DNA of 59,489 nt from a virus (IMGVR_UViG_3300033562_001863:1-59489), one strand, 5' to 3'; shown: positions 16,432 to 31,799, counted from the stretch's first letter. A program made the numbers and translations. Notes: generated by a model not told the origin, from the sequence alone.

Positions 16432-16502
16432 GTTCCCTTCGTCTATCGGTAGGACAACACATTCTCAGTGTGTAAAGATTGGTTCGACTCCAGTAGGGAA
16501 TA
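16432..16502 (+). tRNA. tRNA-Glu(CTC) copy 1
   Basis: Cloverleaf; anticodon arm ACACA-TTCTCAG-TGTGT. Confidence 0.85.
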
Positions 16503-16520
16503 ATAAGTCAAGGAGAATCC

Positions 16521-17381
16521 ATGAAACTATTTTGTAATAACTGTGATGGAGTTTACGATAGTTTGGATGTTAGATTTACGAAATCCTGTGACAACAACTG
16601 TGATTTTTGTATAGAAAAACAAGGTATAGATAATCTTGGTATGGCAGAGCCATCTACTCTTATAGAAAGCACAAAAAAAGCAGGAATAAAAAGTGTTCTT
16701 ATTCTGGGTGGAGAACCCTTACTTTTTATTGAAAATGTTTTAGAATATATTAAAGGTATTAGAGATTTTGCTGATACCATATACCTTACAACTTCCCTAC
16801 CTATAACTATAATGAACAATAGAAAATCTGTTGATGAAATAATAAATCTTCTCGATGGAATAAATATTTCTATACAGAGTAGCGATTGGGAAGAGAATAA
16901 CAAAATACTAAAAGCCAGTAGTGAGTACAACAGAATAGAACTTTTAAAAAATCTAAATAAAAAACATTCAGATAAAATAAGGGTTTCTATCAACTTGGTG
17001 CGAGGTGGCATTGACAGCAAAGAAAAACTTTTGAAAACCATTTCAAAGCTTGAATCTTGTGGCTGTAAAAATATCAAGATAAATGAGCTTCAAAATAGTC
17101 CTTCTTTATATGTTTCATTTGAAGACATTATGAAAATAAAAATGAAATCTCCTTACTCTCACGGTTGTTCTACAAAGATAAAAATAGACGGAGTGACTGC
17201 TGGGCTTATTCTAAAAAGAAGTTGTTTCATAGAAGAAGTAAGTAGAGAAGCCACCGTAAGTGATTTTATAAAAGCACTTGTTAAGCATTATGTACATAAC
17301 AAGAAAAATCGTTTTTCTGTTATGTATGAAAACGGAATGGTGACAAAAGGATGGGCAACAAAATGTCAAACAAAAAACTGA
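16521..17381 (+). CDS. radical SAM enzyme
   Basis: CDNNCDFC (CxxxCxxC), GGEP. Confidence 0.9.
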   Translation: MKLFCNNCDGVYDSLDVRFTKSCDNNCDFCIEKQGIDNLGMAEPSTLIESTKKAGIKSVLILGGEPLLFIENVLEYIKGIRDFADTIYLTTSLPITIMNNRKSVDEIINLLDGINISIQSSDWEENNKILKASSEYNRIELLKNLNKKHSDKIRVSINLVRGGIDSKEKLLKTISKLESCGCKNIKINELQNSPSLYVSFEDIMKIKMKSPYSHGCSTKIKIDGVTAGLILKRSCFIEEVSREATVSDFIKALVKHYVHNKKNRFSVMYENGMVTKGWATKCQTKN

Positions 17382-17542
17382 CCGATATAACAAAAAAAAT
17401 CATTTACTTTGAGGAAGAGGAAGAAGCTCCAAAAACAAAAAGTAAAAAAACTTCTGGTGGTCACTGTGGAAGCAGTGGCGGTCACTGTGGAGTTTCTGGA
17501 ACTTCTGGTCACTGTGGAAGTAGTGGCGGTCACTGCGGCTGA
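17363..17542 (+). CDS. small peptide with four GHCG repeats; candidate RiPP precursor or metal-binding peptide
   Basis: Charged leader then SGGHCG-SSGGHCG-VSGTSGHCG-SSGGHCG; overlaps the rSAM stop. Confidence 0.7.
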   Translation: MSNKKLTDITKKIIYFEEEEEAPKTKSKKTSGGHCGSSGGHCGVSGTSGHCGSSGGHCG

Positions 17543-17565
17543 ACCTAAAATACATAGGAAGAAAT

Positions 17566-17862
17566 ATGATACCAAAGATTGGCACTAAAGCAGTATGTAT
17601 AAAAGATTATCACAATGGTGGATGGCTTAACTATACTGGAACTGTGGTAGCTATCAGGGGAAGTTTTACTAAAAATGTTGGTGTTGATTTTGGCGTCAGG
17701 TCAAGGAGTGGTTACGGACATAATCTACTTTGGAACGGAGACTCTGGCGGAGATTTCTTTAAGATAAAAAATGAAACTGGATGGTGGTTTCCTGCTGATA
17801 GATTTAATGAATATTTTAGATTATTAAAAGAACCAAAAGAGCAGTTTGAGTTTGTTTTCTAA
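17566..17862 (+). CDS. small SH3-like protein ending QFEFVF
   Basis: GGW..GTVV..VGVDF..GH.L..TGWWFP family. Confidence 0.75.
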   Translation: MIPKIGTKAVCIKDYHNGGWLNYTGTVVAIRGSFTKNVGVDFGVRSRSGYGHNLLWNGDSGGDFFKIKNETGWWFPADRFNEYFRLLKEPKEQFEFVF

Positions 17863-17868
17863 AAATGC

Positions 17869-17897
17869 TTGACAAAGTTTTTTGTTCGTGTTATAAT
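17869..17897 (+). promoter_or_regulatory. sigma70-type promoter
   Basis: TTGACA-N17-TATAAT. Confidence 0.8.
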
Positions 17898-17900
17898 AAT

Positions 17901-18109
17901 ACCAGAGAGAATGAAATGGCGGAACCCAAAAAAAGAAAATATACTTTTTTGAAATAAAAAAGTTTTTCTATTGGGTAGAAAATGAAAATGCCTGTTTTCA
18001 ATGTCTCTCTCCTGCCCTCTACTGCGTCGGACTGACGAGTAAGAGAAGGCCGATGAAACCATTGTGGAGTAGTTGGCACTGGCCGGTATCATTGATACCG
18101 GCTTTTTTT
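17901..18109 (+). ncRNA. candidate structured sRNA/leader between promoter and terminator
   Basis: No plus-strand ORF; several hairpins; ends in GCCGGTATC-ATT-GATACCGGC-T7. Confidence 0.45.
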
Positions 18110-18146
18110 ATTAAACTTATTGCTTTCTCTAACAAAGGAGAAAAGA

Positions 18147-18350
18147 ATGAACCTATACCTTGCTGAAATAAAATACGAAACAAGCTATTACGAAGGTAAG
18201 ACAGAAGAACTTCAAATGATTAGATTAGTCCGTGCCGATAGTCAGGAAGAAGCCGAAGGTAAGGCTTGGCATTATATTGAAAGTAAAACAGAAGAGTATT
18301 ACAAGTACTACAGAACTCTCTCTGTAGATATATCTTCCACAATAGAATAA
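18147..18350 (+). CDS. hypothetical protein
   Basis: ATG 18147 after AGGAG. Confidence 0.65.
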   Translation: MNLYLAEIKYETSYYEGKTEELQMIRLVRADSQEEAEGKAWHYIESKTEEYYKYYRTLSVDISSTIE

Positions 18351-18360
18351 AGGAAATAAA

Positions 18361-18723
18361 ATGAGTTCATATCTTACAAATAGATTAAGTTTGCTGGCTC
18401 AACTGAAAGCAGAATCTGCTAACTGGGTTGGTTATAACAGTGCTTTGGTAGATAAAGTAGCAAGTACTTTCAAAGACGTAGCCGAAGAAGCAGACGACGC
18501 AAGAAAAGAAAGAAAAATAGTTTTTGTTTGGGTGTTATCTATTTCTTTGGCTCTTATTGTTGGTATTGGTTTTTTAAAGAACGTAATAGACAACGATAAC
18601 TGGAGATTAAAAAAAGAAGCAGAACTTACCGAAACAATCACTAAAAATATATCTACAAAATACACTGAAGTTCATTCTGGGACAATATACCAGAAAGATG
18701 GTGTCTTGTATGTAAAGGAATAA
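18361..18723 (+). CDS. hypothetical single-TM protein
   Basis: Hydrophobic IVFVWVLSISLALIVGIGF. Confidence 0.65.
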   Translation: MSSYLTNRLSLLAQLKAESANWVGYNSALVDKVASTFKDVAEEADDARKERKIVFVWVLSISLALIVGIGFLKNVIDNDNWRLKKEAELTETITKNISTKYTEVHSGTIYQKDGVLYVKE

Positions 18724-18725
18724 AA

Positions 18726-19109
18726 ATGAATAAGTATCTTCTTAAGTTTATAAAGCAAATGAAAAAAGAAACCCTCATTGGCTCTCCTTATAAAGTTAAG
18801 AAGTATGTTTCTAAGTTTTGGGGAAAATATTTTGGAACTGTGTATATCATCACAGATGCTAAACATAAAATCAGAATAGATGTTAGAAGTGAAAAGCAAA
18901 AGGATGAAATCTGGCCGGTTATTTTTATTGATAGACAAGATTGTTTTGATAAACCTGCTAAATGCCCTATCCAGCTTCCTGTTCCAAAAAACGAAAAGGA
19001 GTATGAAAAACTTTTTATGTATATTCAGCTGATACTTATAGATGATTCTTGGTATGATATAAGCAATGAATATCAAACAGAGAAGTGGGTAAAAGGATAT
19101 GGCACCTGA
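18726..19109 (+). CDS. hypothetical protein
   Basis: ORF in tightly packed run. Confidence 0.6.
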   Translation: MNKYLLKFIKQMKKETLIGSPYKVKKYVSKFWGKYFGTVYIITDAKHKIRIDVRSEKQKDEIWPVIFIDRQDCFDKPAKCPIQLPVPKNEKEYEKLFMYIQLILIDDSWYDISNEYQTEKWVKGYGT

Positions 19110-19305
19110 CAACGATATGATTTTAACTGACAGAGAAGTTCAAGCATACAAAACTATTCTGGCAATATCTAGAGATAGTGATGTCAAGAAAGTTTTAACC
19201 AAAAGATTGACTAAGCATTTACTGCAAGTGATGTTCAGGGATGTGTACAGGCAATGTAGAAAAAAGAATATGAGATTTATGAAGGAACAAAAAGATGTGT
19301 CCTAA
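19099..19305 (+). CDS. hypothetical protein
   Basis: Overlapping-coupled ORF. Confidence 0.5.
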   Translation: MAPDNDMILTDREVQAYKTILAISRDSDVKKVLTKRLTKHLLQVMFRDVYRQCRKKNMRFMKEQKDVS

Positions 19306-19573
19306 GTGGTTATACTTAGGAGTTAGATATGCGCATCATTTCTATATTGACTTTTCGGATTCAACAAATCGAGGAACGAACTTTACTTGGAAAAAGTTTC
19401 CTAATCTAGTTGTTAGATTGACTTCTGTTCATGCTCCACTCTCTTATCCTAGAGGTAATAACAAATTGTTTGTGTCATTGAGTTGTATTACTGCCTATGC
19501 AGTAGCTTATATTTTGAGCTATGAGGATATTAAAATAGAGAAGAGATTGATTGAAGTAGAAGGGGCAATATGA
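19295..19573 (+). CDS. hypothetical protein
   Basis: Overlapping-coupled ORF. Confidence 0.45.
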   Translation: MCPKWLYLGVRYAHHFYIDFSDSTNRGTNFTWKKFPNLVVRLTSVHAPLSYPRGNNKLFVSLSCITAYAVAYILSYEDIKIEKRLIEVEGAI

Positions 19574-19854
19574 TACACTTTGATTTTACAGTGAACGAGG
19601 AAGATGCTACAAATATTTTTGATTGTATAAACTCAAAAATAACTGACGACGAAGTTCAACTAAGAAAATCTATAATAGATAACGAGAAGTACTTAAAATG
19701 GTACACAACAGATTGTGACGATAGAGCGCACGTAGCAGAGCTCTACAAAGACAGTAAAGAGAAAATATCTTGGTACGAAAAAGATATAGAATATTTGAAA
19801 GATTTGAAGATAAGAATGCGCAACAAATATAGTAACAAGGAAACTTTAGAATAA
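19570..19854 (+). CDS. hypothetical protein, paralog of 29603-29818
   Basis: MxHFDFxVxxExAxxIFDC shared. Confidence 0.65.
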   Translation: MIHFDFTVNEEDATNIFDCINSKITDDEVQLRKSIIDNEKYLKWYTTDCDDRAHVAELYKDSKEKISWYEKDIEYLKDLKIRMRNKYSNKETLE

Positions 19855-19878
19855 ATAAAAGAACTAAAGCGGGCAAAA

Positions 19879-20523
19879 ATGGGTCATTATGGTAGTGATT
19901 ATGAAGACAGCTATACATCAAAATCTGCTTGGACTCTTAGAGAAGGTTGTACTCCTTCTCCTGTTATACTAATGAATGCTAGTCAAGACAAACTTCATAT
20001 TGACCTTCCTGGGAGGAAATATATTAAGCACGAAAGATTAAGGAATGAGGGTTTTGCAGTTCATCAAAAACCAAATAGTCCAAGAGATACCATTGAAAAT
20101 AATGCAAAACCAAATATAGGTATTACAGAAGATTTAGAAAGTTTTGGGCACATACGAACATGGGAGCATTTTGGAGATTTAAGCCAAGATGATTATCCCC
20201 TTCTCGATTCTCTTGTCAGTAAGATTGGTTGGGTAGTTGGTAGTGATAAGCAAGGTAGAACTCTTTATCATTATTCAGCAGAACAATGTAAACAGCTTTT
20301 GCGTGAAGCTGGCTTTTTATGTGTTAAAATAAAAGATTGTCCTTTTTGTGGAAGTAAATCTAAAGTAGTTGAGTTACAAGATTGTGGAAGTAATAATCTA
20401 ACATATGTAGTTCAGTGTGAGAATTGCAAAGCAGAAACCACTGAGTTTGCTAATCCAGATATGGCTGTTCTAGCTTGGAACAATAGAATGACAGAAGAAA
20501 ATAAGTTAAAACAAAATACTTGA
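19879..20523 (+). CDS. protein with C-terminal Lar-like zinc finger
   Basis: CPFCGS...C..C...AWNNR. Confidence 0.6.
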   Translation: MGHYGSDYEDSYTSKSAWTLREGCTPSPVILMNASQDKLHIDLPGRKYIKHERLRNEGFAVHQKPNSPRDTIENNAKPNIGITEDLESFGHIRTWEHFGDLSQDDYPLLDSLVSKIGWVVGSDKQGRTLYHYSAEQCKQLLREAGFLCVKIKDCPFCGSKSKVVELQDCGSNNLTYVVQCENCKAETTEFANPDMAVLAWNNRMTEENKLKQNT

Positions 20524-20605
20524 CAAAGTTTTTATTTCATGGTATAATAATAGTACAAGGAAATAGCTCGTATGAGCGAAAAAACTTATAGGGGGTTATA
20601 TGAAG
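20513..20605 (+). repeat. 93-bp exact duplicate of 178-270 (promoter + leader hairpin + RBS + start)
   Basis: Base-by-base identity by eye; TTGACA at 20520, TATAAT at 20543. Confidence 0.85.
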
Positions 20606-20878
20606 CAGAAGAGTATCTATTCCATCGTCAGGGACGGTAACGGAAAGCGCATTGGAATGGTTGTGGCTTTTGGACCTGGGCAGGTGGGCTTTTCCAAGGT
20701 TCATCCCAAGGAAAAGTTCGACAAGAAACTCGGCATCTCCGTAGCCATCGCCAGGGCAGTTGATCCTGACACTATGGAATTTCATGTGAGCTACGTCAAA
20801 GGGAATATCCCGCCTGAATTCCAGTATCCCCTGGAAAGGATAAAGGATGCCTCGACCAGGTATTTTGCACCCGTGTAA
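20600..20878 (+). CDS. hypothetical protein
   Basis: GC-rich codons; follows duplicated leader. Confidence 0.7.
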   Translation: MKQKSIYSIVRDGNGKRIGMVVAFGPGQVGFSKVHPKEKFDKKLGISVAIARAVDPDTMEFHVSYVKGNIPPEFQYPLERIKDASTRYFAPV

Positions 20879-21143
20879 AAATTGCAAGCATTTCGCAGAA
20901 TATAGCACAGAAACAAGAAGCTACAAAGATGGTTATGGTTTTTGTTGTAATATAGATGCCGAACCATCTTTGACAAACTCTTCGTTTCATCCTTTTAGAA
21001 TAAATCCTACCGATACGGTAAGTTGCAATCAATACTTGGAGAAAAAGATTGAAAAGAACAAAGCAAGAGCGGCTGGAAAAGGAAAAGAAAGCAAAGACGA
21101 AGAAGATGACCTTGGAGAGTTCCAAAGAGATTTACAAGAATAG
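20847..21143 (+). CDS. hypothetical Cys-cluster protein
   Basis: CKNCKHF...GFCC...C; start uncertain. Confidence 0.5.
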   Translation: MPRPGILHPCKNCKHFAEYSTETRSYKDGYGFCCNIDAEPSLTNSSFHPFRINPTDTVSCNQYLEKKIEKNKARAAGKGKESKDEEDDLGEFQRDLQE

Positions 21144-21220
21144 ATTTCTAAATAAATACTCTTAAATAAGTTTAGTTTTGGCTCTCCTCTTTTGGAGAGC
21201 CAAAGTCATTGGAGGGGTAT

Positions 21221-21484
21221 ATGGAAAATACAGATTACTTATGTCCATATTGTGGATCTTTATCTTCTTTTACTTCTTCAAAGAAAGAACTCTTACATTG
21301 TAAAAAGTGTAATAACTTTTTTGCTTTGGAAAAAGAACTTGTAAGAAGAGAAAGCTGGAACCCGCATATTACAAGCAAAGAAAGAAGTGATATATTGAAT
21401 AAGGAGTATTACTTCTCTATGCTTAGAATAAAAGAAAGAATGGAAGAAGAGCTGAGGAGACAAAAAGATGAAAGTGAAAGTTAA
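21221..21484 (+). CDS. zinc-ribbon protein
   Basis: CPYCG...CKKC. Confidence 0.6.
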   Translation: MENTDYLCPYCGSLSSFTSSKKELLHCKKCNNFFALEKELVRRESWNPHITSKERSDILNKEYYFSMLRIKERMEEELRRQKDESES

Positions 21485-21593
21485 AGGGAAAACCGTAAAA
21501 ATCCCAAAAGGCATTGCTGGATTTGGTAATGTCAAGAAATATATAAAGAAAACAAAGAAAACTGGATCTTTCAAAGTTCAAAAAGGAAAGTAA
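21468..21593 (+). CDS. 41-aa very basic peptide
   Basis: MKVKVKGKTVKIPKG...; GAGGAG RBS; not in ORF track. Confidence 0.5.
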   Translation: MKVKVKGKTVKIPKGIAGFGNVKKYIKKTKKTGSFKVQKGK

Positions 21594-21884
21594 ATGCTTA
21601 AACTTGGAGATAAAGTAAGTTGCCTTGAAGAAGGAATAGACGAAGCCATAGTGGGTGGTATTTTTATTCCCGAAGACACAGATGAAACCCAGGTTCTATT
21701 GGTATTTCAAAAAATGTTTTCAAATACAATATCCGGGCACAATGGCTTTTGGATTAAGCCATATGCTAAAGATAAAAAATATTCTTATTTAGATAAAGAT
21801 TTCAGCAAAGAACAATACTCAAGTTATTGGGTTAGACCGCAGGAATGTAAGATTTTACGAACGCAGTTTGAGTTTGTATTCTAA
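21594..21884 (+). CDS. small SH3-like protein ending QFEFVF
   Basis: LKLGDKV..GH; tail motif. Confidence 0.7.
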   Translation: MLKLGDKVSCLEEGIDEAIVGGIFIPEDTDETQVLLVFQKMFSNTISGHNGFWIKPYAKDKKYSYLDKDFSKEQYSSYWVRPQECKILRTQFEFVF

Positions 21885-21889
21885 ACTTA

Positions 21890-21918
21890 TTGACAAAAAA
21901 TCGTATATACTGTATAAT
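21890..21918 (+). promoter_or_regulatory. sigma70-type promoter
   Basis: TTGACA-N17-TATAAT. Confidence 0.8.
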
Positions 21919-21935
21919 AATATGTAGGAGAAAAG

Positions 21936-22262
21936 ATGACGATAACTTCAAAACTGACTGTTCATTCTAACAGGATTTCAAAAGTAGATATATCAAGTGT
22001 GGTAGATGTAGAGGGCGATAATCCTGGCATTTTCAATATAAATGAAGTAGACACAAACTCTGTAGAGTTCGAGCTTGTTACTCCGTTCCCAAGTCAAACG
22101 GTAGATGTTCCTCAAGCTATTTTTGAAAATGAAACAGAACTAAAAAAGAATACTCTTGAGTACATTGAAGAGCTTATACAAATGTATAGGGAAATGTATG
22201 GCAGTATCTCTTCTTCCATAAACAAATTTGATGTAAGAAAAAAACTTGCAGAGGATGAATAA
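21936..22262 (+). CDS. hypothetical acidic protein
   Basis: AGGAG RBS. Confidence 0.65.
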   Translation: MTITSKLTVHSNRISKVDISSVVDVEGDNPGIFNINEVDTNSVEFELVTPFPSQTVDVPQAIFENETELKKNTLEYIEELIQMYREMYGSISSSINKFDVRKKLAEDE

Positions 22263-22489
22263 TGCTTCTTGTAAAATACAGTAATAAAGATACTGATTCT
22301 GCTGATTATGAAACATCTGGATATTCTATTAAAATAGACGGGAATATAGAAGCAGACCAAATATTAGAAAGTGTTATTATGCCACTTCTAAAATATCTTG
22401 ACTTCACCTTAGAGGAAGTGTTGGTTACTTCAGAAGAAAAACCTGAAAAGCGTAATAAAGCAACGAAAGAAAAATACGAAAATGTTTAA
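22262..22489 (+). CDS. hypothetical protein
   Basis: TAATG-coupled ORF. Confidence 0.55.
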   Translation: MLLVKYSNKDTDSADYETSGYSIKIDGNIEADQILESVIMPLLKYLDFTLEEVLVTSEEKPEKRNKATKEKYENV

Positions 22490-22563
22490 CCATATAGTAA
22501 GATTTTTTTTGAATGTAATACTATTCGCTGGATTAGTAATCTTATTTTTTTAAGGGGAGTAAA

Positions 22564-22737
22564 ATGGATCACAAGAATCTAAAAATTTTTTTGGACTGCT
22601 CTGGCAAGACGTTTGAATACAACCTCATCAATGACGATGGAGAGGTTATGCTCATGGGTGATGGATACGAAAGCGCGGATGAAATAATAGAAGAACTCTC
22701 TCTGTGGAACAATGCCCTTAAGCAAGTGTTTGGTTGA
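22564..22737 (+). CDS. 57-aa hypothetical protein
   Basis: MDHKNLKIFLDCSG...; GGGGAG RBS; not in ORF track. Confidence 0.55.
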   Translation: MDHKNLKIFLDCSGKTFEYNLINDDGEVMLMGDGYESADEIIEELSLWNNALKQVFG

Positions 22738-22743
22738 ACAAAA

Positions 22744-22847
22744 GGGGATAAAAGGTTTCGACATATATCTTGCTTAAAGCGACGCAAGGCCCACAGCTAT
22801 CGAAAGCTTAGAGATATATGGACCCGGCTTCAATGCCGGTATCTCCA
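22744..22847 (+). ncRNA. minimal tmRNA-like RNA (tRNA-like domain, ~40-nt interior)
   Basis: GGGGATA/TATCTCC-A acceptor with G3.U70; 5' GGTTTCGAC; 9-bp P2 CATATATCT/AGATATATG; GAC-CCGGC-TTCAAT-GCCGG T-arm. Confidence 0.75.
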
Positions 22848-22865
22848 GTACTTTAGAGGTATAAG

Positions 22866-23120
22866 ATGTATATTTTGAAAATGGTCGAGTGCATAGCTTA
22901 TTCAGGAACTTGGACAAGCTACTATGGCATTTTCTCAGATGATTCCATATCTTTAGTTGCCTTGGATAAGCTTAAAGTTTTTATTTCTAAACGTGATGGA
23001 TTAAAAATAGATTCGTGGGAAAGCATGGCTAGCGGAATTGGCTATGAATACCCTACAGGTGGAGATGGTTCTGTTGAAATATATTTAGAAGAAGTAGAGC
23101 TGAACAAAGAACTATTTTAA
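22866..23120 (+). CDS. hypothetical protein
   Basis: GAGG RBS. Confidence 0.6.
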   Translation: MYILKMVECIAYSGTWTSYYGIFSDDSISLVALDKLKVFISKRDGLKIDSWESMASGIGYEYPTGGDGSVEIYLEEVELNKELF

Positions 23121-23132
23121 GGAGCATCACCA

Positions 23133-23453
23133 ATGGCTATCACACTTCATAACGTAAAAATCAAAGATATAGAACATGAAATAAATGGTAGCAGTCTCGA
23201 TGATGCTATAAGTACTCTCAAAGAGCTTAGAGAGGAGTATTGGAATTCTTACGAGAAGCTTCATTTTGAAATTACTGTTGAAGACGATGCCGATTATAGA
23301 AGTGTCAGTGTTATGCTCGTAGGTGAGCGGAAAGAAACCGAGGAAGAGAAGATAAAAAGAGAGACAGAAGATAGGTTATCTCTAGAAACAGTAGAAACCT
23401 ACGAGAAGGCTGTACTCGCCAAGTTACTTGCTAAATATGGGACACCTGAATGA
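23133..23453 (+). CDS. hypothetical protein
   Basis: AGGAG RBS. Confidence 0.65.
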   Translation: MAITLHNVKIKDIEHEINGSSLDDAISTLKELREEYWNSYEKLHFEITVEDDADYRSVSVMLVGERKETEEEKIKRETEDRLSLETVETYEKAVLAKLLAKYGTPE

Positions 23454-23839
23454 CAAGTGTCTTTGTTTTATCAATAAGCATACCTTTGGTTTTCACTGTG
23501 CTTCTCAAAATTATCTATCTTATAAAAAATCCGTTTTTCTTAGAAACTCATCACACTATGACAAAAGAATCTTGCGACACTTACGAAAAAGGAACCTTTG
23601 ATGATTTTCTACGTTGCTATAATGCTAGAGTTTGGGAGCGAGATATAAACTTTCCAAGTTCTCATTTTGAAGCAGATATAGATTATCCTTATTATAATAG
23701 CCAAATCCACGCAAGCATTATCTGTTTTGATAAAGTAGGAATGTTGCTTGACAGAAAGTCGTACAAGAAGTTCAAAAAATGGGAAAAGGAAAACACTCTA
23801 TCTTGTAATAAAGAGGTTAATAATAAAATATGGAACTAA
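23450..23839 (+). CDS. hypothetical N-terminal TM protein
   Basis: Hydrophobic N-terminus. Confidence 0.6.
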   Translation: MTSVFVLSISIPLVFTVLLKIIYLIKNPFFLETHHTMTKESCDTYEKGTFDDFLRCYNARVWERDINFPSSHFEADIDYPYYNSQIHASIICFDKVGMLLDRKSYKKFKKWEKENTLSCNKEVNNKIWN

Positions 23840-23998
23840 ATCTTCTATTTAAGGAGCATCACCATGAAGAAGAATAAAGAGTTTATAGAGTTCTTTGGAG
23901 AGGGAGATATTCCAGAAGATGTCAAAAAGAAACTTCAAGAGACAATAGATAAAATGTCAAAAAAGGATATCGATAAAATCATTAAAGAAAAGGAATAG

Positions 23999-24454
23999 AT
24001 GAAAAATAAAATAATAAACTTATTTATAATAATATTGGCTGCATCCGCTCTTTCTTTTATGGCATATTTGTTAGGTGCTCCATTTTTAGCATCAAGCTGT
24101 TTTTTCTTTTCTTTTGGCTTTCTGGCTTTTGACAGCTATAATAGAAAGCAAAAGCAAATAGACTATCTAATAGACAGGATAGCTGAAGAAGCTATAATGA
24201 AGATTGATTTCATATTCAATGATGACACAAAAACTACTGAAGAAAAAGAAATTTTAGCCGAAGATGTGGTTGAATATAGCAATCTAATAAAAATCTTTAA
24301 CTCTATATTTGGCATTGATGAAAAAGAAAAAGACATTTCAATGGTAGTAGATGCTGTGCTTGGTGATTTTCTTTGCTTTAGTATAGAAAAATATGTAGTC
24401 CTGGAAAACAAGTTTCAATACTATTATTACGCAGAGTATAACAAAAACTATTGA
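23999..24454 (+). CDS. hypothetical membrane protein
   Basis: Two N-terminal hydrophobic segments. Confidence 0.6.
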   Translation: MKNKIINLFIIILAASALSFMAYLLGAPFLASSCFFFSFGFLAFDSYNRKQKQIDYLIDRIAEEAIMKIDFIFNDDTKTTEEKEILAEDVVEYSNLIKIFNSIFGIDEKEKDISMVVDAVLGDFLCFSIEKYVVLENKFQYYYYAEYNKNY

Positions 24455-24479
24455 CGAAGTTTTGACTTCGTGGCATAAT
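24451..24479 (+). promoter_or_regulatory. promoter with palindromic spacer
   Basis: TTGACGAAGTtttgACTTCGTggCATAAT. Confidence 0.65.
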
Positions 24480-24496
24480 AATACAGGGGAGAAAAA

Positions 24497-24886
24497 ATGG
24501 AAAATAGTTTTGATTTTATAACAAAGTGCCGCAAGAGGCATAATATATTTAATACTTCGATTTGTTTTTTGAAATCATTGAAAAACAACATTGCGAAGGT
24601 TCCTTGGTTTGATATAACTATGGAACATTCCTATCAGGAAGTTGAAGTCGATAAGAAAACTTCGTATCAACTTTATGAAAAGGGAATTATAATAGGCGAT
24701 GGTGATTTGATCTGTACCAAATGTGGAACTATTTCCCACAGTATGGTTGAACACAAAGATATAAAAGGGTATTTTTATTGTGATAACAACCATTGTGTTT
24801 ATACAAAGTCAGATTTTTCTGCTCAACTTTTTCTTTATATGGATTCAATAGCTGCTAGAGTAGAATCTTTTCTATCGAGGAAGTAA
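24497..24886 (+). CDS. hypothetical zinc-finger protein
   Basis: CTKCG...C...HC. Confidence 0.6.
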   Translation: MENSFDFITKCRKRHNIFNTSICFLKSLKNNIAKVPWFDITMEHSYQEVEVDKKTSYQLYEKGIIIGDGDLICTKCGTISHSMVEHKDIKGYFYCDNNHCVYTKSDFSAQLFLYMDSIAARVESFLSRK

Positions 24887-24891
24887 AATCT

Positions 24892-25215
24892 ATGGTTCCA
24901 CTTAGCAAAAGAGAAGAAGCAAGAAAAAATATATTGAATTGTGAGTGCCCAGAACCAGCAAAAAGGGTAAAGTTTCATGCAGAAACTGGCAATATATATT
25001 CTATATTTTCAAGTAACTTTTGGCCAAATAAAGTAGAAGAAGGACCTATAGCATATGTTGATAGAATAGCAAAATCTTTTTTATGGCCTGACTGCTTAAG
25101 TGATAAAAATCTTGTTTCTGCTATTCATAGGTATGATAGCTTAGAAGTAGCCGCATACTATATGATAAAGTATAGCAAAAAAGCTATGCAGTTTGAGTTT
25201 AACTTCAGCTCTTAA
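24892..25215 (+). CDS. hypothetical protein ending QFEFNFSS; paralog of 26219-26509
   Basis: RIAKxFLWPDCLxDKxLVSA shared. Confidence 0.7.
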   Translation: MVPLSKREEARKNILNCECPEPAKRVKFHAETGNIYSIFSSNFWPNKVEEGPIAYVDRIAKSFLWPDCLSDKNLVSAIHRYDSLEVAAYYMIKYSKKAMQFEFNFSS

Positions 25216-25280
25216 AGTAAAGGTAATAGCACCCTTTCTTATGGGCTGCTGATTTGCCCTCTTTTTTATTGGAGGAATGG

Positions 25281-25616
25281 GTGTATAAAGTTGGAGATAC
25301 TATAAAAATACGAAGTAAAGAGTATTTCCGGAATCTACCTGATTACGACGAAAGCGGATATGGGGTTCCTATTGGTGCTTATTTTACCGATATAATGTTT
25401 ATTTTTTGTGGTAGAAAGTTTATTATCGAATCGGAAACAAAGGCCAATATAATACTTCGTACTGGAGACCCTAAGATATATGGTGATTTAGACAAAATAT
25501 ATGCAGTAAGAAATATTGGTAAATACGATAGCAACGACGAATATGGAATAAGCAATTTTAAATTTTCAGAGTATATGTTTGAAAAACTAGCACAGCAGTT
25601 TGAGTTTAGCTTCTAA
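25281..25616 (+). CDS. small SH3-like protein ending QFEFSF
   Basis: GTG 25281 after GGAGG; YKVGDTIKIR. Confidence 0.7.
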   Translation: MYKVGDTIKIRSKEYFRNLPDYDESGYGVPIGAYFTDIMFIFCGRKFIIESETKANIILRTGDPKIYGDLDKIYAVRNIGKYDSNDEYGISNFKFSEYMFEKLAQQFEFSF

Positions 25617-25622
25617 AAATAC

Positions 25623-25651
25623 TTGACAAAGTTTTCTATTCATAATATAAT
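25623..25651 (+). promoter_or_regulatory. sigma70-type promoter
   Basis: TTGACA-N17-TATAAT. Confidence 0.8.
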
Positions 25652-25673
25652 AATAGCATACGTTTTTAATCTT

Positions 25674-25754
25674 GCCTCCGTGATGGAATGAATACATTTT
25701 GGACTTAAAATCCAACGCCCGTAAGGGATTGCGAGGTCGAACTCGTCGGAGGCA
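25674..25754 (+). tRNA. tRNA-Leu(TAA)
   Basis: TTGGA-CTTAAAA-TCCAA; long variable arm. Confidence 0.8.
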
Positions 25755-25780
25755 TATTCTGTTTTCTATAGAGGGGTTAT

Positions 25781-26143
25781 ATGTTTTGTAATAAAAAGTT
25801 GCGTGAAGCAATAAAAGTATTAAACGAGGAAGTAGAAAGAGCAAAGGCATATTGCGAAAAGGTAGAAAGAGAAAAGGCCAAACAGCCAGATGTTTTTGAA
25901 GTCCATTTTGATATGGAATATTTTTTCGACAGTTCTCCAGCTGATGTCAGAACTATCAGTAGGATTTTCTGCTATAGAAACAGAGAAAGAGCTTTGGCGG
26001 CAGTTAGTGCTCTACAAACAGGAAGCAAAATAAGCTTGCCTTCTATTATAGAAGAAGATACTGTGATAGAGGGTTTCTTTGAACATTATATTGATCCTAA
26101 AAATATAGTATTCAAAGATGTCTGGATAGAAATAATACCTTGA
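25781..26143 (+). CDS. hypothetical protein
   Basis: GAGGGG RBS. Confidence 0.6.
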   Translation: MFCNKKLREAIKVLNEEVERAKAYCEKVEREKAKQPDVFEVHFDMEYFFDSSPADVRTISRIFCYRNRERALAAVSALQTGSKISLPSIIEEDTVIEGFFEHYIDPKNIVFKDVWIEIIP

Positions 26144-26150
26144 AAAGTTC

Positions 26151-26179
26151 TTGACGAAGTTTTGACTTCGTGGTATAAT
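26151..26179 (+). promoter_or_regulatory. promoter with palindromic spacer (region ~26144-26206 duplicated at ~26799-26861)
   Basis: TTGACGAAGTtttgACTTCGTggTATAAT. Confidence 0.8.
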
Positions 26180-26218
26180 AATAGCACGGAAGAAAAAGTT
26201 AGAAAGGGGATATATTTT

Positions 26219-26509
26219 ATGGTTCCACTAAGGTATAGAGAAAATATAAGAAAATATATCATAGGAAACAAAAGTCCAAAGTCATTTGACGTAGTAAACT
26301 TTTATCATAGCCCTTATAACATTACTTCTTTTTTTGAAAAAAACTTTAGCAAGCGTGATAAAAATGAAAATATTACAGAATATATCAATAGGATTGCTAA
26401 GAATTTTTTATGGCCCGATTGTTTGAATGACAAAGAACTGGTTTCTGCTTTAAATTGTTTTGGATGTTTAGAAATAGCCAATTTCTATATGTTAAAATAC
26501 AATAAATAG
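26219..26509 (+). CDS. paralog of 24892-25215 lacking the QxEFxF tail
   Basis: ATG 26219 (MVPL...). Confidence 0.65.
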   Translation: MVPLRYRENIRKYIIGNKSPKSFDVVNFYHSPYNITSFFEKNFSKRDKNENITEYINRIAKNFLWPDCLNDKELVSALNCFGCLEIANFYMLKYNK

Positions 26510-26523
26510 CACGGGGGAAGAAA

Positions 26524-26796
26524 ATGAAAAATGAAAACATTTTTGGCCTTGATGTAGTTTCTTTTAATGTAGAAGATGCTCTTCCTCCAAAGAGGTCGTA
26601 TGTAATAGCAAAACTTGTAGACTCTGTTTCAAAGAAAGCAAAGTTGAGAAGTTCTTACTATGATAATGGTGTTTTCTGGGATAGCGAGAGCAGCCATGCT
26701 TCTGGTATAGAACATAGTTCAAGCGAATGTGACGATGAAGAAACATTGATATATAACTGGGAAGTAGTTTCTTGGTTTAAAGCTGATTTTTCTTAG
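26524..26796 (+). CDS. hypothetical protein (DUF551-like)
   Basis: VEDALP...V..W pattern. Confidence 0.5.
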   Translation: MKNENIFGLDVVSFNVEDALPPKRSYVIAKLVDSVSKKAKLRSSYYDNGVFWDSESSHASGIEHSSSECDDEETLIYNWEVVSWFKADFS

Positions 26797-26805
26797 TAAA
26801 AGTTC

Positions 26806-26834
26806 TTGACGAAGTTTTGACTTCGTGGTATAAT
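26806..26834 (+). promoter_or_regulatory. promoter with palindromic spacer heading the ncRNA/tRNA-Glu array
   Basis: TTGACG-N17-TATAAT. Confidence 0.8.
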
Positions 26835-27168
26835 AATAGCACGGAAGAAAAAGTTAGAAAGTTCCATGAAAATGTTGAGTTTTCTGACAGCGGCAAGGTA
26901 ATGTGGCTCACTCCGCATAGAGCGGTGGGTAAGACCTTGGAATAAGTCGTATAGACGACAACCACATAAAATGATTTTGGCTTTAGCAGTGTTCACCTTC
27001 CTTTTTTACGGTGGTAGGTTTGTGAACACTTAAATATAAATGAAAAACCGTTCCTATCTATGATGACCTGTTCCAACTTCATAGATGTATTAAAGTACAG
27101 GGGCAACTTTGGATGTTTTGACCTTTCTTCCTTAGTGGTAGTTTAATGGATTAGGTTATTGATTTTAG

Positions 27169-27313
27169 ATGCCCGTATAGACAAGCTTTTAGTTGTTGTA
27201 TTTTAAGTTGGGTGCAAGCCCACTTTAGCATGATAGCTACAAAGCCCTATATTCTAAAATCACTTATGCCTCTTAAGCCATGTTGCAACATGATTGCTTA
27301 GGCAAAATGGGCA
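27169..27313 (+). ncRNA. candidate structured RNA (ends pair)
   Basis: ATGCCCGT/ATGGGCAT closing stem just before tRNA-Glu copy 2. Confidence 0.45.
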
Positions 27314-27321
27314 TTTTATTT

Positions 27322-27392
27322 GTTCCCTTCGTCTATCGGTAGGACAGTTTGTTCTCAGCAAACAAAGATTGGTTCGACTCCAGTAGGGAATA
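27322..27392 (+). tRNA. tRNA-Glu(CTC) copy 2
   Basis: GTTTG-TTCTCAG-CAAAC. Confidence 0.85.
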
Positions 27393-27400
27393 TAGTTCAT

Positions 27401-27473
27401 TCTTCGGTAGCTCAGTTGGCAGAGCGTCTGGCTGTTAACCAGAATGTCGCAGGTTCAAGTCCTGCCCGGAGAG
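27401..27473 (+). tRNA. tRNA-Asn(GTT)
   Basis: Canonical cloverleaf. Confidence 0.9.
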
Positions 27474-27478
27474 CTAAA

Positions 27479-27727
27479 GTTTCTATCTAGTGTTTCTGTT
27501 CCATACAGCCAAAGTAGATCGACGTTTATGAGTAGGGGTAAGGAGTTATTGCGCCTTATCTTGAAAATAAGAATGGATGAAATGGTGTCGAGTTCAGGCA
27601 CAAAGGGAAACTCTTCTCTTGACTACTAAGAAGAGTGCGGCAAAAAGATTGAATGGAATGTTGGCAAACGGTGAAAGCTTATTGTCGATGTTTCAAACAA
27701 AACTTAAACGCAGGTAGGTAGTCAAAC
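27479..27727 (+). ncRNA. candidate structured RNA (ends pair)
   Basis: GTTT-CTATCTA / TAGGTAG..AAAC closing helix between tRNAs. Confidence 0.4.
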
Positions 27728-27729
27728 AA

Positions 27730-27800
27730 GTTCCCTTCGTCTATCGGTAGGACGCTCCCTTCTCAGGGGAGAAAGATTGGTTCGACTCCAGTAGGGAATA
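27730..27800 (+). tRNA. tRNA-Glu(CTC) copy 3
   Basis: CTCCC-TTCTCAG-GGGAG. Confidence 0.85.
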
Positions 27801-27807
27801 TATTTCT

Positions 27808-28151
27808 TTGGTGGCTTATAGAAAGAGGTTTAGCTCAACGTGCTACTGGTGATGTTGTTAAAATATGAAAATGATTTTAATAATGTTGCTTAGTTGCTAG
27901 GGCAAAACTCATTAGCTCGGCTTTTATTTTATTTTCGCCGTCTTGCTTTATTGTATTGCGAGATTAAGTAACAGTAAGACCCTGACCATAGGGTGACATG
28001 GCTCGCTAGGTTTGCGATAAGAAACTCCCTTGTTTTTTCGTTTAACTTTTTCTCTTGGGTTAAAAAGAAAAAGTAAAATAGTTTTATGTGCGCTGTGTTG
28101 CATATATAAAACTACTTATAGCCAGCTTGCAAACACAGGGCTGGCTACCAA
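27808..28151 (+). ncRNA. candidate structured RNA (ends pair)
   Basis: TTGGTGGCT/GGCTACCAA 9-bp closing stem bounded by tRNA-Glu copies 3 and 4. Confidence 0.45.
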
Positions 28152-28222
28152 GTTCCCTTCGTCTATCGGTAGGACAACACGTTCTCAGCGTGTAAAGATT
28201 GGTTCGACTCCAGTAGGGAATA
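28152..28222 (+). tRNA. tRNA-Glu(CTC) copy 4
   Basis: ACACG-TTCTCAG-CGTGT. Confidence 0.85.
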
Positions 28223-28249
28223 TACTTTCTTTTTTTAAGGAGGGTTGCT

Positions 28250-28426
28250 ATGAGTAGTGGAGAAAAGGAATGGCTTAAAGAAAGAGAAGCTTACGAAAAA
28301 GAACTGTATGAAGATTTCGAATCGCAAAATGCAAATGGCCCTGCTTTCTTGAGCAATGGAGAGTTTGTTCAGTATCTAATGTCCCGAATGTATCATGAAG
28401 GGCTTCCTTCAAAAGAACCAATGTAA
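28250..28426 (+). CDS. 58-aa hypothetical protein
   Basis: AGGAGG RBS; MSSGEKEWLKERE...; not in ORF track. Confidence 0.55.
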   Translation: MSSGEKEWLKEREAYEKELYEDFESQNANGPAFLSNGEFVQYLMSRMYHEGLPSKEPM

Positions 28427-28432
28427 AAGTCC

Positions 28433-28461
28433 TTGACTAAGTTTTTTGTTCAGTGTATAAT
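28433..28461 (+). promoter_or_regulatory. sigma70-type promoter
   Basis: TTGACT-N17-TATAAT. Confidence 0.75.
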
Positions 28462-28475
28462 ATAAGTAAGAGAAA

Positions 28476-28547
28476 GCGTTATTAGCTCAACAGTAGAGCA
28501 TTTGGCTTTTAACCAAAGGGCCGCAGGAGCGTCACCTGCATGACGCA
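28476..28547 (+). tRNA. tRNA-Lys(TTT), non-canonical D/T loops
   Basis: TTTGG-CTTTTAA-CCAAA; T-loop AGCGTCA. Confidence 0.75.
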
Positions 28548-28827
28548 TGAAAGTTTGTTATGAGAAGCGTTGAGTATGCCAACAAATCATAGAGTGAGTA
28601 TATCTTGCTGCTCCCTAATAAGGAATGGAAAAGTTGAAAGCAACTACATTTAAGTGCTGCTCTTCTGTTGTATCATAATAGGCATCCTCAACTTGCTATC
28701 GAGAGGAGAGCTTTAAACTTGTGGTGGAGAATGAGAGTTAGCTCCTTGTTAAGTTTTGAAAAAAACTTGTCTTGGAACGCTTTTGTTTTTTATTCATTAG
28801 CTAAGCTCAGGCGTAGATAGCATTCAA

Positions 28828-28898
28828 GTTCCCTTCGTCTATCGGTAGGACAGTTTGTTCTCAGCAAACAAAGATTGGTTCGACTCCAGTAGGGAATA
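28828..28898 (+). tRNA. tRNA-Glu(CTC) copy 5
   Basis: GTTTG-TTCTCAG-CAAAC. Confidence 0.85.
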
Positions 28899-28899
28899 T

Positions 28900-29211
28900 A
28901 GGCGTACTGTGGCTCATTGCTCACAGGCAAACAGCATTGGCGTAGCGAAGAGCTATACCAAGTTGCGCAAGTAGGTTTTGGTTAAGGGCTAAAAGCTGGT
29001 TGGGAGTAGTACAACTCTTGGGGCTTTAAAACAACCAGTAAAGCAAACTGTATAAGTCCCTGATTACAAATATGGTTATGTGATACAGTTTATGGAGGTA
29101 CTCAATCCTCCCCACATTAAGCAAGGTAGAGACGTTTATTTTGTGTGGTGCCTGAATAACTATTGCTTCACTCTGGCTAGCTGGTAACAAACTATCCCAG
29201 CCAGTACGCCT
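28900..29211 (+). ncRNA. candidate ~310-nt structured RNA
   Basis: Perfect AGGCGTACTG/CAGTACGCCT terminal stem bounded by tRNA-Glu copies 5 and 6. Confidence 0.55.
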
Positions 29212-29216
29212 TTTAA

Positions 29217-29287
29217 GTTCCCTTCGTCTATCGGTAGGACGGTTTGTTCTCAGCAAACAAAGATTGGTTCGACTCCAGTAGGGAATA
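29217..29287 (+). tRNA. tRNA-Glu(CTC) copy 6
   Basis: GTTTG-TTCTCAG-CAAAC. Confidence 0.85.
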
Positions 29288-29472
29288 ATAAGCCATTGGC
29301 CGCCCATTATTATCAGGGCGTGAGCTATTGGTTTTGATACGTTTGCTCAATTGCGTATCGCTGTTAAAAGCCGGTTTAATGCTGTTTTATTCCGTGGGTA
29401 ACTGCGGGTAGAATGATGTTCTATTGGCCTATAACAGTTGGGCTGTGCTATTAGAAATAATGGCACATTTAT

Positions 29473-29543
29473 GCACCGTTAGAATAGAAGTAGTTCGCAG
29501 GGTTTTCAACCCTGACAGGCGGGGGCGGTACCCGCACGGTGTA
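29473..29543 (+). tRNA. tRNA-Glu(TTC), non-canonical loops
   Basis: CAGGG-TTTTCAA-CCCTG; T-loop GGCGGTA. Confidence 0.7.
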
Positions 29544-29602
29544 TTGAACTCTAATGGCCTAGAACATTTTTAATCACCATTATATCATTTGGAGGTTCGC
29601 AG

Positions 29603-29818
29603 ATGGTTCATTTTGACTTTGTAGTAACGGACGAAGAAGCAGAAACTATTTTTGACTGTATGAACCTGGAAATAGAAAAATGCGATGACGAAGTTGATGT
29701 GATGAGTAAAGAAGAAGCTGCGCCAAACATTCAGTGGTTTTCTGACAGGAAAGGTTTCATAGATAAGCTCAAAGAAAAAATGAGCAACTATGTAGTAGAA
29801 GAAAGGGCAGTTGGATAA
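29603..29818 (+). CDS. hypothetical protein, paralog of 19570-19854
   Basis: GGAGG RBS; shared N-terminus. Confidence 0.65.
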   Translation: MVHFDFVVTDEEAETIFDCMNLEIEKCDDEVDVMSKEEAAPNIQWFSDRKGFIDKLKEKMSNYVVEERAVG

Positions 29819-29829
29819 ACGTATAACAT

Positions 29830-29901
29830 TGCCTTTTAGTTCAGAGGTAGAATAATGGTCTTTGAAGCCATTTGTCGCTGGTTCGAATCCAGCAAAGGCA
29901 A
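29830..29901 (+). tRNA. tRNA-Gln(TTG)
   Basis: ATGGT-CTTTGAA-GCCAT. Confidence 0.85.
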
Positions 29902-29956
29902 AAGAAAAAATAAAACAGATATTCAAAAGAAGAATATCAGAAAGGAGTGTTGCCAT

Positions 29957-30481
29957 ATGATATATTTTAGTTCAGATTGGCACCTTGGCCACTCCAATAT
30001 AATAAAGTTCTGTGACCGTCCCTTCTCTTCAACAGGAGAAATGGATAAAGCTATTCTGGATAGATACTGCGAAACAGTAAAACCAGAAGATACATTTTAT
30101 TTTCTTGGTGACTTTTCTTGGTATAACTGGAAAAGAAACTATGAAATCTGGAGTTCTCTCCCTGGAACCAAATATTTTATAAAGGGAAACCATGACAAGG
30201 ATGTAGATGAGTTTATAGACACATCCACCATAAGCAACATATGGGTTGAAAAAAACCCAGTAACTCTTTGCCATTATCCTATGCTATCATGGGATAAAAG
30301 CCATTTCGGGGCAATCCAGTTATACGGCCACCATCACACATTGGATACGAATAGTATTTTTCCAGGCAAGAGAATAAATGTAGCTTGCGACAAATGGGAC
30401 TTCAGGCCAGTTTCTTGGGATACTATAAAGCGTGTAGCAGATAAACTTCCAAACAACTGGGACTATATAGAGGGAAGATAG
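29957..30481 (+). CDS. calcineurin-like phosphoesterase (phage type)
   Basis: SDWHLGH, LGD, GNHD, CHYP, GHHH; ATG 29957 after AGGAG. Confidence 0.9.
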   Translation: MIYFSSDWHLGHSNIIKFCDRPFSSTGEMDKAILDRYCETVKPEDTFYFLGDFSWYNWKRNYEIWSSLPGTKYFIKGNHDKDVDEFIDTSTISNIWVEKNPVTLCHYPMLSWDKSHFGAIQLYGHHHTLDTNSIFPGKRINVACDKWDFRPVSWDTIKRVADKLPNNWDYIEGR

Positions 30482-30483
30482 TT

Positions 30484-30696
30484 ATGGATTATTCTATCGG
30501 TGAAAAAGTAGAATGTATCACAGATTTACATCCCTATATAAATAAAGGTTCTATTGGAAGAGTAATAGTTGTTGGTAGTATTATGTCAAGTATGGAAGTA
30601 GTTTTTTTAGATGTTTTGAAAGGTAAACCCATAGATTGGATATACGCTATACACATTAAAAAAACTATTCCAAAGCAACTTGAGTTTTCTTTTTGA
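30484..30696 (+). CDS. small SH3-like protein ending QLEFSF
   Basis: YSIGEKV..G..G.V. Confidence 0.7.
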   Translation: MDYSIGEKVECITDLHPYINKGSIGRVIVVGSIMSSMEVVFLDVLKGKPIDWIYAIHIKKTIPKQLEFSF

Positions 30697-30708
30697 AAGG
30701 TAAATAGC

Positions 30709-31209: not shown

Positions 31210-31256
31210 AAGCGATGTAGCGACTGACGGTATATCCTTTTTATTTCATAAACTAC

Positions 31257-31285
31257 TTGACAAAGTTTTTTGTTTAGTGTATAAT
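31257..31285 (+). promoter_or_regulatory. sigma70-type promoter
   Basis: TTGACA-N17-TATAAT. Confidence 0.8.
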
Positions 31286-31290
31286 AATAG

Positions 31291-31582: not shown

Positions 31583-31589
31583 TTTTTTT

Positions 31590-31660: not shown

Positions 31661-31663
31661 AAT

Positions 31664-31780: not shown

Positions 31781-31799
31781 CTTTTTTAAAAGAATAAAT

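Follow-up and report, generated by a model that had tools for sequence, protein, structure and literature searches.

AriB, the Toprim nuclease of PARIS, is reported to cut tRNA between positions 40 and 41 (PMC12409363), and the tRNA-Lys of phage T5 is described as escaping it by means of two changes around the cut site (PMC12409363; PMC11464382). The Toprim nuclease P2-OLD, by the account in PMC12445682, cuts both strands of the anticodon stem at a paired CNG motif and so detaches the anticodon arm; a phage tRNA-Thr(UGU) escapes it through changes in the stem, and the cut is one that phage ligases cannot repair (PMC12445682). Stem-cutting nucleases of this type and the single tRNAs that escape them were described recently and in E. 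coli phages only. Here we describe six tRNA-Glu(CUC) genes that differ from one another in position 26 and the anticodon stem and in nothing else. They lie in a stretch of viral DNA of 59,489 nucleotides (IMGVR_UViG_3300033562_001863:1-59489), which is referred to below as the window. An initial annotation of the window had taken it as established that phage tRNA variants evade the anticodon nucleases PrrC, RloC and AriB. This holds for AriB; PrrC, as treated in PMC2610378, is countered by phage repair enzymes and is not known to be evaded by variant tRNAs. We consider it possible, with somewhat less than even confidence, that the six genes constitute a panel of chargeable, nuclease-resistant variants of tRNA-Glu(CUC).

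Results

Sequence variation among the six tRNA-Glu(CUC) genes

ARAGORN predicted 22 tRNA genes in the window, all on the plus strand, and six of these were tRNA-Glu(CUC). Copy 1 (16432..16502) carries the anticodon stem ACACA/TGTGT with A26, copy 2 (27322..27392; 27321-27393 as called by ARAGORN and placed here in a 71-nt register) carries GTTTG/CAAAC with A26, copy 3 (27730..27800) CTCCC/GGGAG with G26, copy 4 (28152..28222) ACACG/CGTGT with A26, copy 5 (28828..28898) GTTTG/CAAAC with A26 and copy 6 (29217..29287) GTTTG/CAAAC with G26. All six were also detected with the Rfam model RF00005 at scores of 44.5–49.3 bits, the gathering score being 29; default filters listed two of the six, laxer filters four out of five in the searched range, and the remaining copy was obtained when searched alone. 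Judged by their sequence, these are real, expressed-type tRNA-Glu(CUC) genes.

Alignment of the six copies over 71 nt gave 60 invariant columns. The 11 variable columns correspond to tRNA position 26 and positions 27–31 and 39–43, that is to the anticodon stem and the base preceding it. Two copies, those at 27730 and 29217, have G at position 26 and the other four have A; the anticodon loop is TTCTCAG in all six, and the copies at 27322 and 28828 are identical, which leaves five distinct sequences. The pattern given in the initial annotation was hence reproduced exactly: acceptor, D arm, anticodon loop and T arm are the same throughout, and there are four stem alleles, GTTTG/CAAAC in three copies, always fully paired, with A or G at position 26.

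Pairs were counted on the cloverleaf. All five pairs of the anticodon stem were found to be changed on both sides with 100% of the cells paired, while none of the 16 pairs of the acceptor, D and T helices varies among the six copies. The covariation score of 0.333 compares with 0.107 ± 0.038 for shuffled alignments, none of 500 shuffles reached it, and controls slid along the alignment gave at most 0.115. Three of the five stem positions hold three pair types, transversion-type swaps among them, and no G-U intermediate was seen in any of the six stems. As the differences are fully compensated, sequencing error is ruled out as their source; an independent assembly of a public sequencing run also spans the junctions of unique flanks with tRNA halves. 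Relating the four stems to one another takes at least eight pair replacements. Assuming equal rates over the 21 stem pairs, the probability that all eight would fall in this helix by chance is (5/21)^8, roughly 1e-5 by our own arithmetic. The minimum free energy fold of all six is the cloverleaf, with the anticodon stem extended by U32-G38 and U33-A37, and the predicted stability of the anticodon arm spans -3.3 to -7.9 kcal/mol across the alleles.

Host-type body and charging determinants

A 20-nt word from the D arm was searched for in 185,579 prokaryote species, each represented by a single genome, and matched six records, five of which were metagenome-assembled genomes (MAGs) of Spirochaetales, Spirochaetaceae or Treponema. 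In those five the word sits in a 71-nt tRNA-Glu(CUC) gene adjoining tRNA-Gln(CUG). The MAG genes agree with the phage copies over the entire D arm, in the loop up to and including position 37 and in the 4-nt variable region, and they too have A73, a G1-U72 pair and no encoded CCA. At E ≤ 1e-5, matches to tRNA-Glu(CUC) were obtained in 11 of 11 genomes of one Spirochaetota order and in 40 of 151 genomes of a phylum-wide sample, and the phage body differs from the nearest Spirochaetota gene at 8–9 of 61 positions. The resemblance of the other phage tRNAs to those of the five MAGs is generic only. On the evidence of the tRNA-Glu genes, a spirochaete host is our best guess, at perhaps slightly better than even confidence. 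The D-arm word also matched the tRNA-Gln(CUG) of a contig filed under a Mesorhizobium MAG (L011, 4043-7864); with 15 tRNA genes in less than 4 kb, this stretch has the look of a tRNA array from a phage or mobile element that was binned together with the MAG.

The determinants of E. coli GluRS given in PMC9976931 (U35, C36, A37, U11-A24, U13-G22:A46 and no residue 47) are all present in the invariant part of the six copies, and the D stem GTCT/GGAC and the 4-nt variable region AAAG are the same in 6/6. Position 34, U in E. coli, is C in the phage copies as it is in the 38 spirochaete CUC gene rows described below. The same source gives G1-C72 and U2-A71 as weak determinants in E. coli (PMC9976931). 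The phage copies have U2-A71, and their pair 1-72 is G-U, not G-C, which is probably tolerated by spirochaete GluRS since the nearest spirochaete genes have the same pair. Judged by their sequence features the genes would belong to the bacterial tRNA-Glu family, and we infer that the copies can be charged by GluRS.

Comparison with orthologues and paralogues

The host-type set employed for comparison comprised 38 tRNA-Glu(CUC) rows with 26 distinct sequences; two of the rows (L012 and L060) are the same gene, giving 37 genes. The mean pairwise difference per site among the 26 host sequences was 0.291 for the stem against 0.163 for the body; among the five distinct phage sequences the stem value was 0.70 and the body value 0.010. 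The stem-to-body ratio is accordingly about 70 in the phage versus about 1.8 in the hosts, i.e. around forty times larger. Host pairs in which four or five stem pairs were changed numbered 49 and carried 3–21 body differences, while phage pairs with as many stem changes carried 0–1, the one being position 26. The most frequent host stem, GGAGA/TCTTC, was found in 21 of the 38 rows. The 10 host stem types include none of the four seen in the phage. A G-U pair occurs in the stem of 32 of the 38 host rows versus none of the six phage copies.

Paralogues in other phages were compared in the same manner. A degenerate D-loop pattern led to 17 other viral contigs, with one match each. Ten pairs of paralogues with the same anticodon on these contigs were 53–75% identical with differences in every arm, and in some of these pairs the anticodon arm was the most conserved part. 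One IMG/VR contig (L039, 89-846) has, within 760 nt, a tRNA-Gln and three tRNA-Glu genes, of which two are UUC and the third is CUC; these tRNA-Glu genes are 65–68% identical and differ in all arms, unlike the copies in the window. The pattern in the window is not normal for either orthologues or paralogues of tRNA.

These controls bear on ordinary relaxed constraint, in which the least-constrained helix drifts by compensation, purifying selection or gene conversion or both fix the body, and no agent selects for diversity. We give this explanation a real, though distinctly minor, chance. The stem is the more variable part per site among host orthologues, GluRS determinants lie outside it, and short trailers common to some of the phage copies do not follow the stem alleles (see below) and hint at recombination between copies. 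This accounts for the direction of the bias but not for its size in the phage as compared to the hosts, and not one host pair with four or five changed stem pairs has fewer than three body changes. The transversion-type swaps seen at three of the five positions (A-U, C-G, U-A, G-C) cannot pass via G-U, and no such intermediate was encountered. Gene conversion that homogenised both halves of the tRNA should furthermore have homogenised the 17-nt middle unless diversity there was selected. Taken with the flanks of the copies, which are unrelated, the orthologue and paralogue comparisons do not fit drift alone. The initial annotation had proposed diversifying selection or a targeted mechanism, and the non-neutral character of the variation is borne out by the orthologue, paralogue and flank controls; the targeted mechanism is taken up below.

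Flanks, promoters and decoding

Copy 1 stands alone, 10.9 kb upstream of the tRNA-Glu cluster, between an open reading frame (ORF) at 15975-16394 and a radical SAM gene at 16521-17381, and copy 2 is followed after 8 nt by tRNA-Asn(GUU) at 27401-27474. No mutual similarity was detectable among the flanks and spacers of the six copies, which by sequence are not recent segmental duplicates. Of the trailer bases, copies 1 and 6 have 7/8 in common, and copies 3 and 4 have nine with one indel. Since these pairings cut across the stem alleles, they weakly hint that arms were exchanged or replaced after duplication. The tRNA-Glu copies between 26842 and 29828 are separated by non-coding spacers of 250–540 nt that gave no Rfam match at E ≤ 1 and, except for two small genes (28250-28426 and 29603-29818), contain no ORF bearing a ribosome site. 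Minimum free energy z-scores of the spacers ranged from -2.0 to -4.5; because one of three coding controls scored -4.15, no claim for structured RNA is made.

A sigma-70-like promoter on the plus strand at 26806..26834 (11/12, with a TG extension, belonging to a repeated promoter family) likely starts a transcript of copies 2–4 and tRNA-Asn, and a second at 28433..28461 (plus strand, 11/12) likely starts one of tRNA-Lys, copies 5–6 and tRNA-Gln. At least seven near-consensus sigma-70-type promoters with a common context (A-rich, TTGAC, AAGTTTT, extended -10) were found between 17860 and 31285, and two 64-nt copies of the promoter family (26143-26206 and 26798-26861) are 100% identical. The distribution of the copies over at least two or three transcription units, together with the predicted range in arm stability, would agree with specialised decoders in which stem strength, the 26-44 hinge and modification sites tune the speed, accuracy or stability of GAG decoding by stage or temperature. 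We consider this unlikely, as no allele is tied to a stage, all being found among early-type promoters, and as neither the unlikeness to the host stem nor the multiplication of Glu(CUC) alone is explained.

Codon usage in 78 roughly called ORFs was 808 GAA and 297 GAG for Glu. The remaining phage tRNAs mostly carry U34 and decode codons that end in A, in line with expectation for a phage rich in A+T; each of the other anticodons of the array is represented by one gene, and tRNA-Glu(UUC) is absent from the window. The six GAG-only decoders are the outlier of the array and codon compensation does not explain them. GAG being the minor Glu codon also weighs against a further explanation, in which the six copies serve dosage and diversification of the repeat's middle part protects against deletions between direct repeats. 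The longest identical run does fall from 71 nt to at most 29 nt between unlike alleles, and the presence of one allele in three copies is consistent with a need for dosage. Compensatory changes in the acceptor or T stem would have served equally well, yet are absent, and copies 2 and 5, 1.5 kb apart, are 100% identical over 71 nt; recombination protection is on this account very unlikely.

That the copies might be decoys or sponges, baits resembling tRNA that bind up a host nuclease or a tRNA-binding defence protein and have no role in translation, was suggested initially and would suit the high copy number and the choice of the isoacceptor for the phage's minor Glu codon. A decoy should mimic its target, however, and with none of the four alleles equal to any of the 10 host stem types in the 38 rows, and all features for charging and a normal cloverleaf retained, there is little to recommend this idea and we give it scant probability. 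Highly improbable, lastly, is a targeted diversifier (DGR-like or by templated hairpin mutagenesis) or a Glu donor for a non-ribosomal reaction such as a RiPP enzyme using Glu-tRNA: the sharp bounds of the variation and the radical SAM and Cys/His/Gly-repeat peptide genes after copy 1 speak in their favour, but no reverse transcriptase or tRNA-dependent enzyme family was found among the 43 of 88 ORFs that were scanned (no reverse transcriptase family among the 40 of 88 scanned with Pfam), no second anticodon-arm copy was found as template for a diversity-generating retroelement, the substitutions involve all four bases and not adenines only, and neither proposal explains a need for several stems. 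Radical SAM maturases are not known to use tRNA.

RNA repair cluster and other genes of the window

A cluster of RNA healing-and-sealing genes was identified by family profile scans at 8452..13395 on the plus strand. The genes in it code for a metallophosphoesterase (8452-9171), a DRB0094-family RNA ligase (9772-10764; 201.5 bits, with the cut-off at 151), an Rnl1-like ligase (11054-12166; phrog_562, E 2e-37), an HD phosphohydrolase that resembles the HD domain of CCA-adding/repair enzymes (12449-12922) and a P-loop kinase that resembles the kinase of bacterial Pnkp (12898-13395), all encoded on the plus strand. The predicted activities are those of a tRNA healing-and-sealing pathway. Damage to tRNA evidently matters to a phage that has a pair of RNA ligases together with a Pnkp-like kinase and phosphoesterases. 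A protein with a SpoT-like (SpoT/RelA-type) HD hydrolase domain, possibly an alarmone hydrolase, is encoded at 2732-3286, and Lar restriction-alleviation domains occur in two other proteins (7891-8424 and 19879-20523); these are likely further counter-defence genes. The phage thus appears to be equipped against host defences that include damage to RNA.

The remaining 16 ARAGORN tRNAs of the array lie at 27401..40152 on the plus strand, and two further tRNAs missed by ARAGORN were matched by Rfam only (32600-32673 and 32711-32786). Two of the array tRNAs (38283-38368 and 40069-40152) have long variable arms and 3-bp D stems, as in class II, with the anticodons GUG (His) and UAU (Ile). Among Ile codons in the rough ORF set ATA is the commonest, at 712 as compared to 366 ATT and 138 ATC. 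The T loop lacks the usual TTCRA in tRNA-Lys(UUU) at 28476-28547 and in the Rfam-only tRNA at 32600-32673, which has the anticodon UGC and an Ala-like G3-U70. An isolated T-arm-like hairpin with a GTTCGATTC loop at 32042-32062, 36 nt after tRNA-Met, may be a tRNA remnant.

The radical SAM gene directly after copy 1 (16521-17381; Pfam Radical_SAM, E 1e-11) is weakly similar, by NCBIfam, to MoaA, viperin and peptide maturases. It is followed by an ORF of 63 amino acids (both genes within 16521-17542), the C-terminal half of which consists of four G-G-H-C-G repeats joined by Ser/Gly, and the two may be a modified-peptide (RiPP-like) pair. A 197-amino-acid protein with a tandem Met-rich motif of the type G-D-x-x-K-N-P-M-L-M-M is encoded at 15371-15964 and gave no family match.

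Source phage and searches for relatives

The IMG/VR record of 59,489 bases is classed as linear by CheckV with a completeness of 25%, and the window looks like one quarter of a phage of roughly 240 kb. A contractile-tail sheath is encoded on the minus strand at 52024-54717 (phrog_23, E 2e-60), and the source is a large uncultured myophage. The G+C content is 29–43% in segments of 2 kb. When 50,697 phage records were searched, the best tblastn matches of the tail sheath were about 35% identical over part of the protein and megablast of 26500-30500 gave no match. A single tRNA copy gave one blastn match, to a tRNA of a KVP40-like Vibrio phage (81% identity); as the match is a lone tRNA-Glu, this phage was rejected as a relative. 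In viral contigs, the search for related loci gave a single distant locus in the case of the tail sheath (31% identity) and none for the ORF at 30709-31209 or the radical SAM protein, and pattern scans for the tRNA middle, the 5' 20-mer and the 3' 22-mer gave zero matches. The pattern for the tRNA middle was likewise absent from metagenome contigs. The 5' 23-mer had one match there, an unrelated tRNA-Glu(UUC) beside tRNA-Phe on a 1.2-kb contig.

Public sequencing runs were also searched. Of the sampled words, 95% were present in a microbial-mat DNA run, possibly the source sample, and 10% in one from freshwater. No RNA run was among the listed public runs containing the window. Contigs from the microbial-mat run end at the tRNA-Glu repeats, and the 40 listed out of 107 contig differences include no variant at a stem position, from which nothing firm follows on polymorphism in the population.

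Discussion

The controls and the repair genes can be brought together in the proposal that the six genes are a panel of nuclease-resistant tRNA-Glu(CUC) variants. The body of the tRNA would be copied from the tRNA-Glu(CUC) of Spirochaetota, the probable host group, and with such a body host GluRS should charge the copies, which should then read GAG. The body would be held constant by the demands of GluRS and of translation, perhaps aided by gene conversion, because the GluRS determinants are located there (D arm, 4-nt variable region and anticodon loop). The anticodon arm, meaning position 26 and the five pairs, would have been replaced repeatedly under diversifying selection. As selective agent we envisage one or several tRNA nucleases of the host or of a rival element that read and cut the anticodon stem, as AriB and P2-OLD do, and that would have driven the stems away from the host stem and from each other. 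A change in the loop would cost tRNA-Glu its recognition by GluRS, so that only the stem and the 26-44 hinge could serve to evade an enzyme gripping the anticodon arm. A cut in the stem would be beyond mending by the phage's own ligases, and a panel of non-host stem alleles would for this reason be kept, leaving one or more GAG decoders intact whichever host strain is infected. The initial annotation had already named such a panel among several possibilities. It gains plausibility from the stem-cut precedents of AriB and P2-OLD and from the RNA repair cluster of the window, while the decoy variant is disfavoured by the host stems and the donor of Glu for a non-ribosomal reaction was left unsupported by the scans of 43 of 88 ORFs.

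A number of points weigh against the nuclease-resistant panel. We know of no nuclease that cuts tRNA-Glu(CUC), and literature searches returned no nuclease cutting tRNA-Glu. The OLD-like TOPRIM family PF20469 was found in one of five MAGs of the candidate clade, which does not imply a target, and the paired CNG motif is absent from the phage stems and from the host-type stem. Three of the six copies have one stem in common, which looks like gene dosage and not like diversity. The CUC anticodon reads GAG only, so that the panel could not rescue the decoding of GAA; any tRNA-Glu(UUC) would have to sit outside the window, in the three quarters of the genome that remain. Host orthologues already show faster evolution in the stem than in the body, hence relaxed constraint explains part of the signal. 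Searches at the DNA and protein level found no relative with this tRNA in the phage, viral-contig and metagenome collections, and comparison of the window, leaving out 20001-27299, with the five MAGs gave matches at the level of tRNA only and no spacer-like match.

A more specific version of the nuclease-resistant panel, which is possible and more doubtful, is that of a standing library of stem alleles on one constant, chargeable body, where gene conversion would fix the body and diversifying selection would separate the stems. If true, the locus would record an arms race against a polymorphic nuclease that reads the stem and attacks tRNA-Glu(CUC) in microbial-mat spirochaetes. To our knowledge neither a defence specificity for tRNA-Glu(CUC) nor a spirochaete host group has been described for tRNA-directed immunity.

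What is new is that a single genome combines different alleles of one helix with an unchanging tRNA body, for Glu and in a phage that probably infects spirochaetes; a literature search, supplements excluded, found no description of phage tRNA paralogues differing only in the anticodon stem. Were the panel to be real, four escape-type stems on one body would speak for a conflict that is old, recurrent and far from model hosts, and tRNA-Glu(CUC) would be indicated as a target of defence. The alleles and the host-type stem differ in only 11 nucleotides and could be used to map the recognition rules of a nuclease directly. An invariant body with one hypervariable helix among tRNA paralogues would also provide a simple signature for such conflicts in phage genomes.

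Among described systems, T5 and PARIS offer a phage tRNA that has the host anticodon and a stem unlike that of the host at the Toprim cut site and that replaces the cut host tRNA. T5 has one variant per anticodon, with nuclease and resistance experimentally shown, whereas the window has six copies with four stems for one anticodon, and Glu is not a reported AriB target. With P2-OLD the locus would have in common escape through a change in stem sequence from a cut out of reach of phage RNA ligases, and a cut of that type would explain stem variants in a phage that already has repair enzymes. The tRNAs resistant to P2-OLD have a shortened stem while all stems in the window keep five Watson-Crick pairs; P2-OLD's own specificity was rejected as the agent given the missing motif, and only the principle transfers. 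The mycobacteriophage tRNAs as presented in PMC10264068 likewise outlast tRNA-targeting defences of the host rather than compensate for codon usage, with changes in the anticodon loop, in contrast to the invariant loop and varied stem found here.

Repair of the T4 type, by polynucleotide kinase-phosphatase and RNA ligase 1 against PrrC, has counterparts in the Rnl1-like and second ligase, the Pnkp-like kinase and the phosphoesterases of the window. It handles cuts in the loop, and the tRNA-Glu panel would add a second, sequence-based line of defence. Eukaryotic isodecoders, by the account in PMC1693877, are similar in that several genes with one anticodon have different sequences, the changes there being spread over the body, whereas in the window the body is invariant and one helix differs. 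The library of stem alleles, if it is one, would resemble a set of cassettes for antigenic variation.

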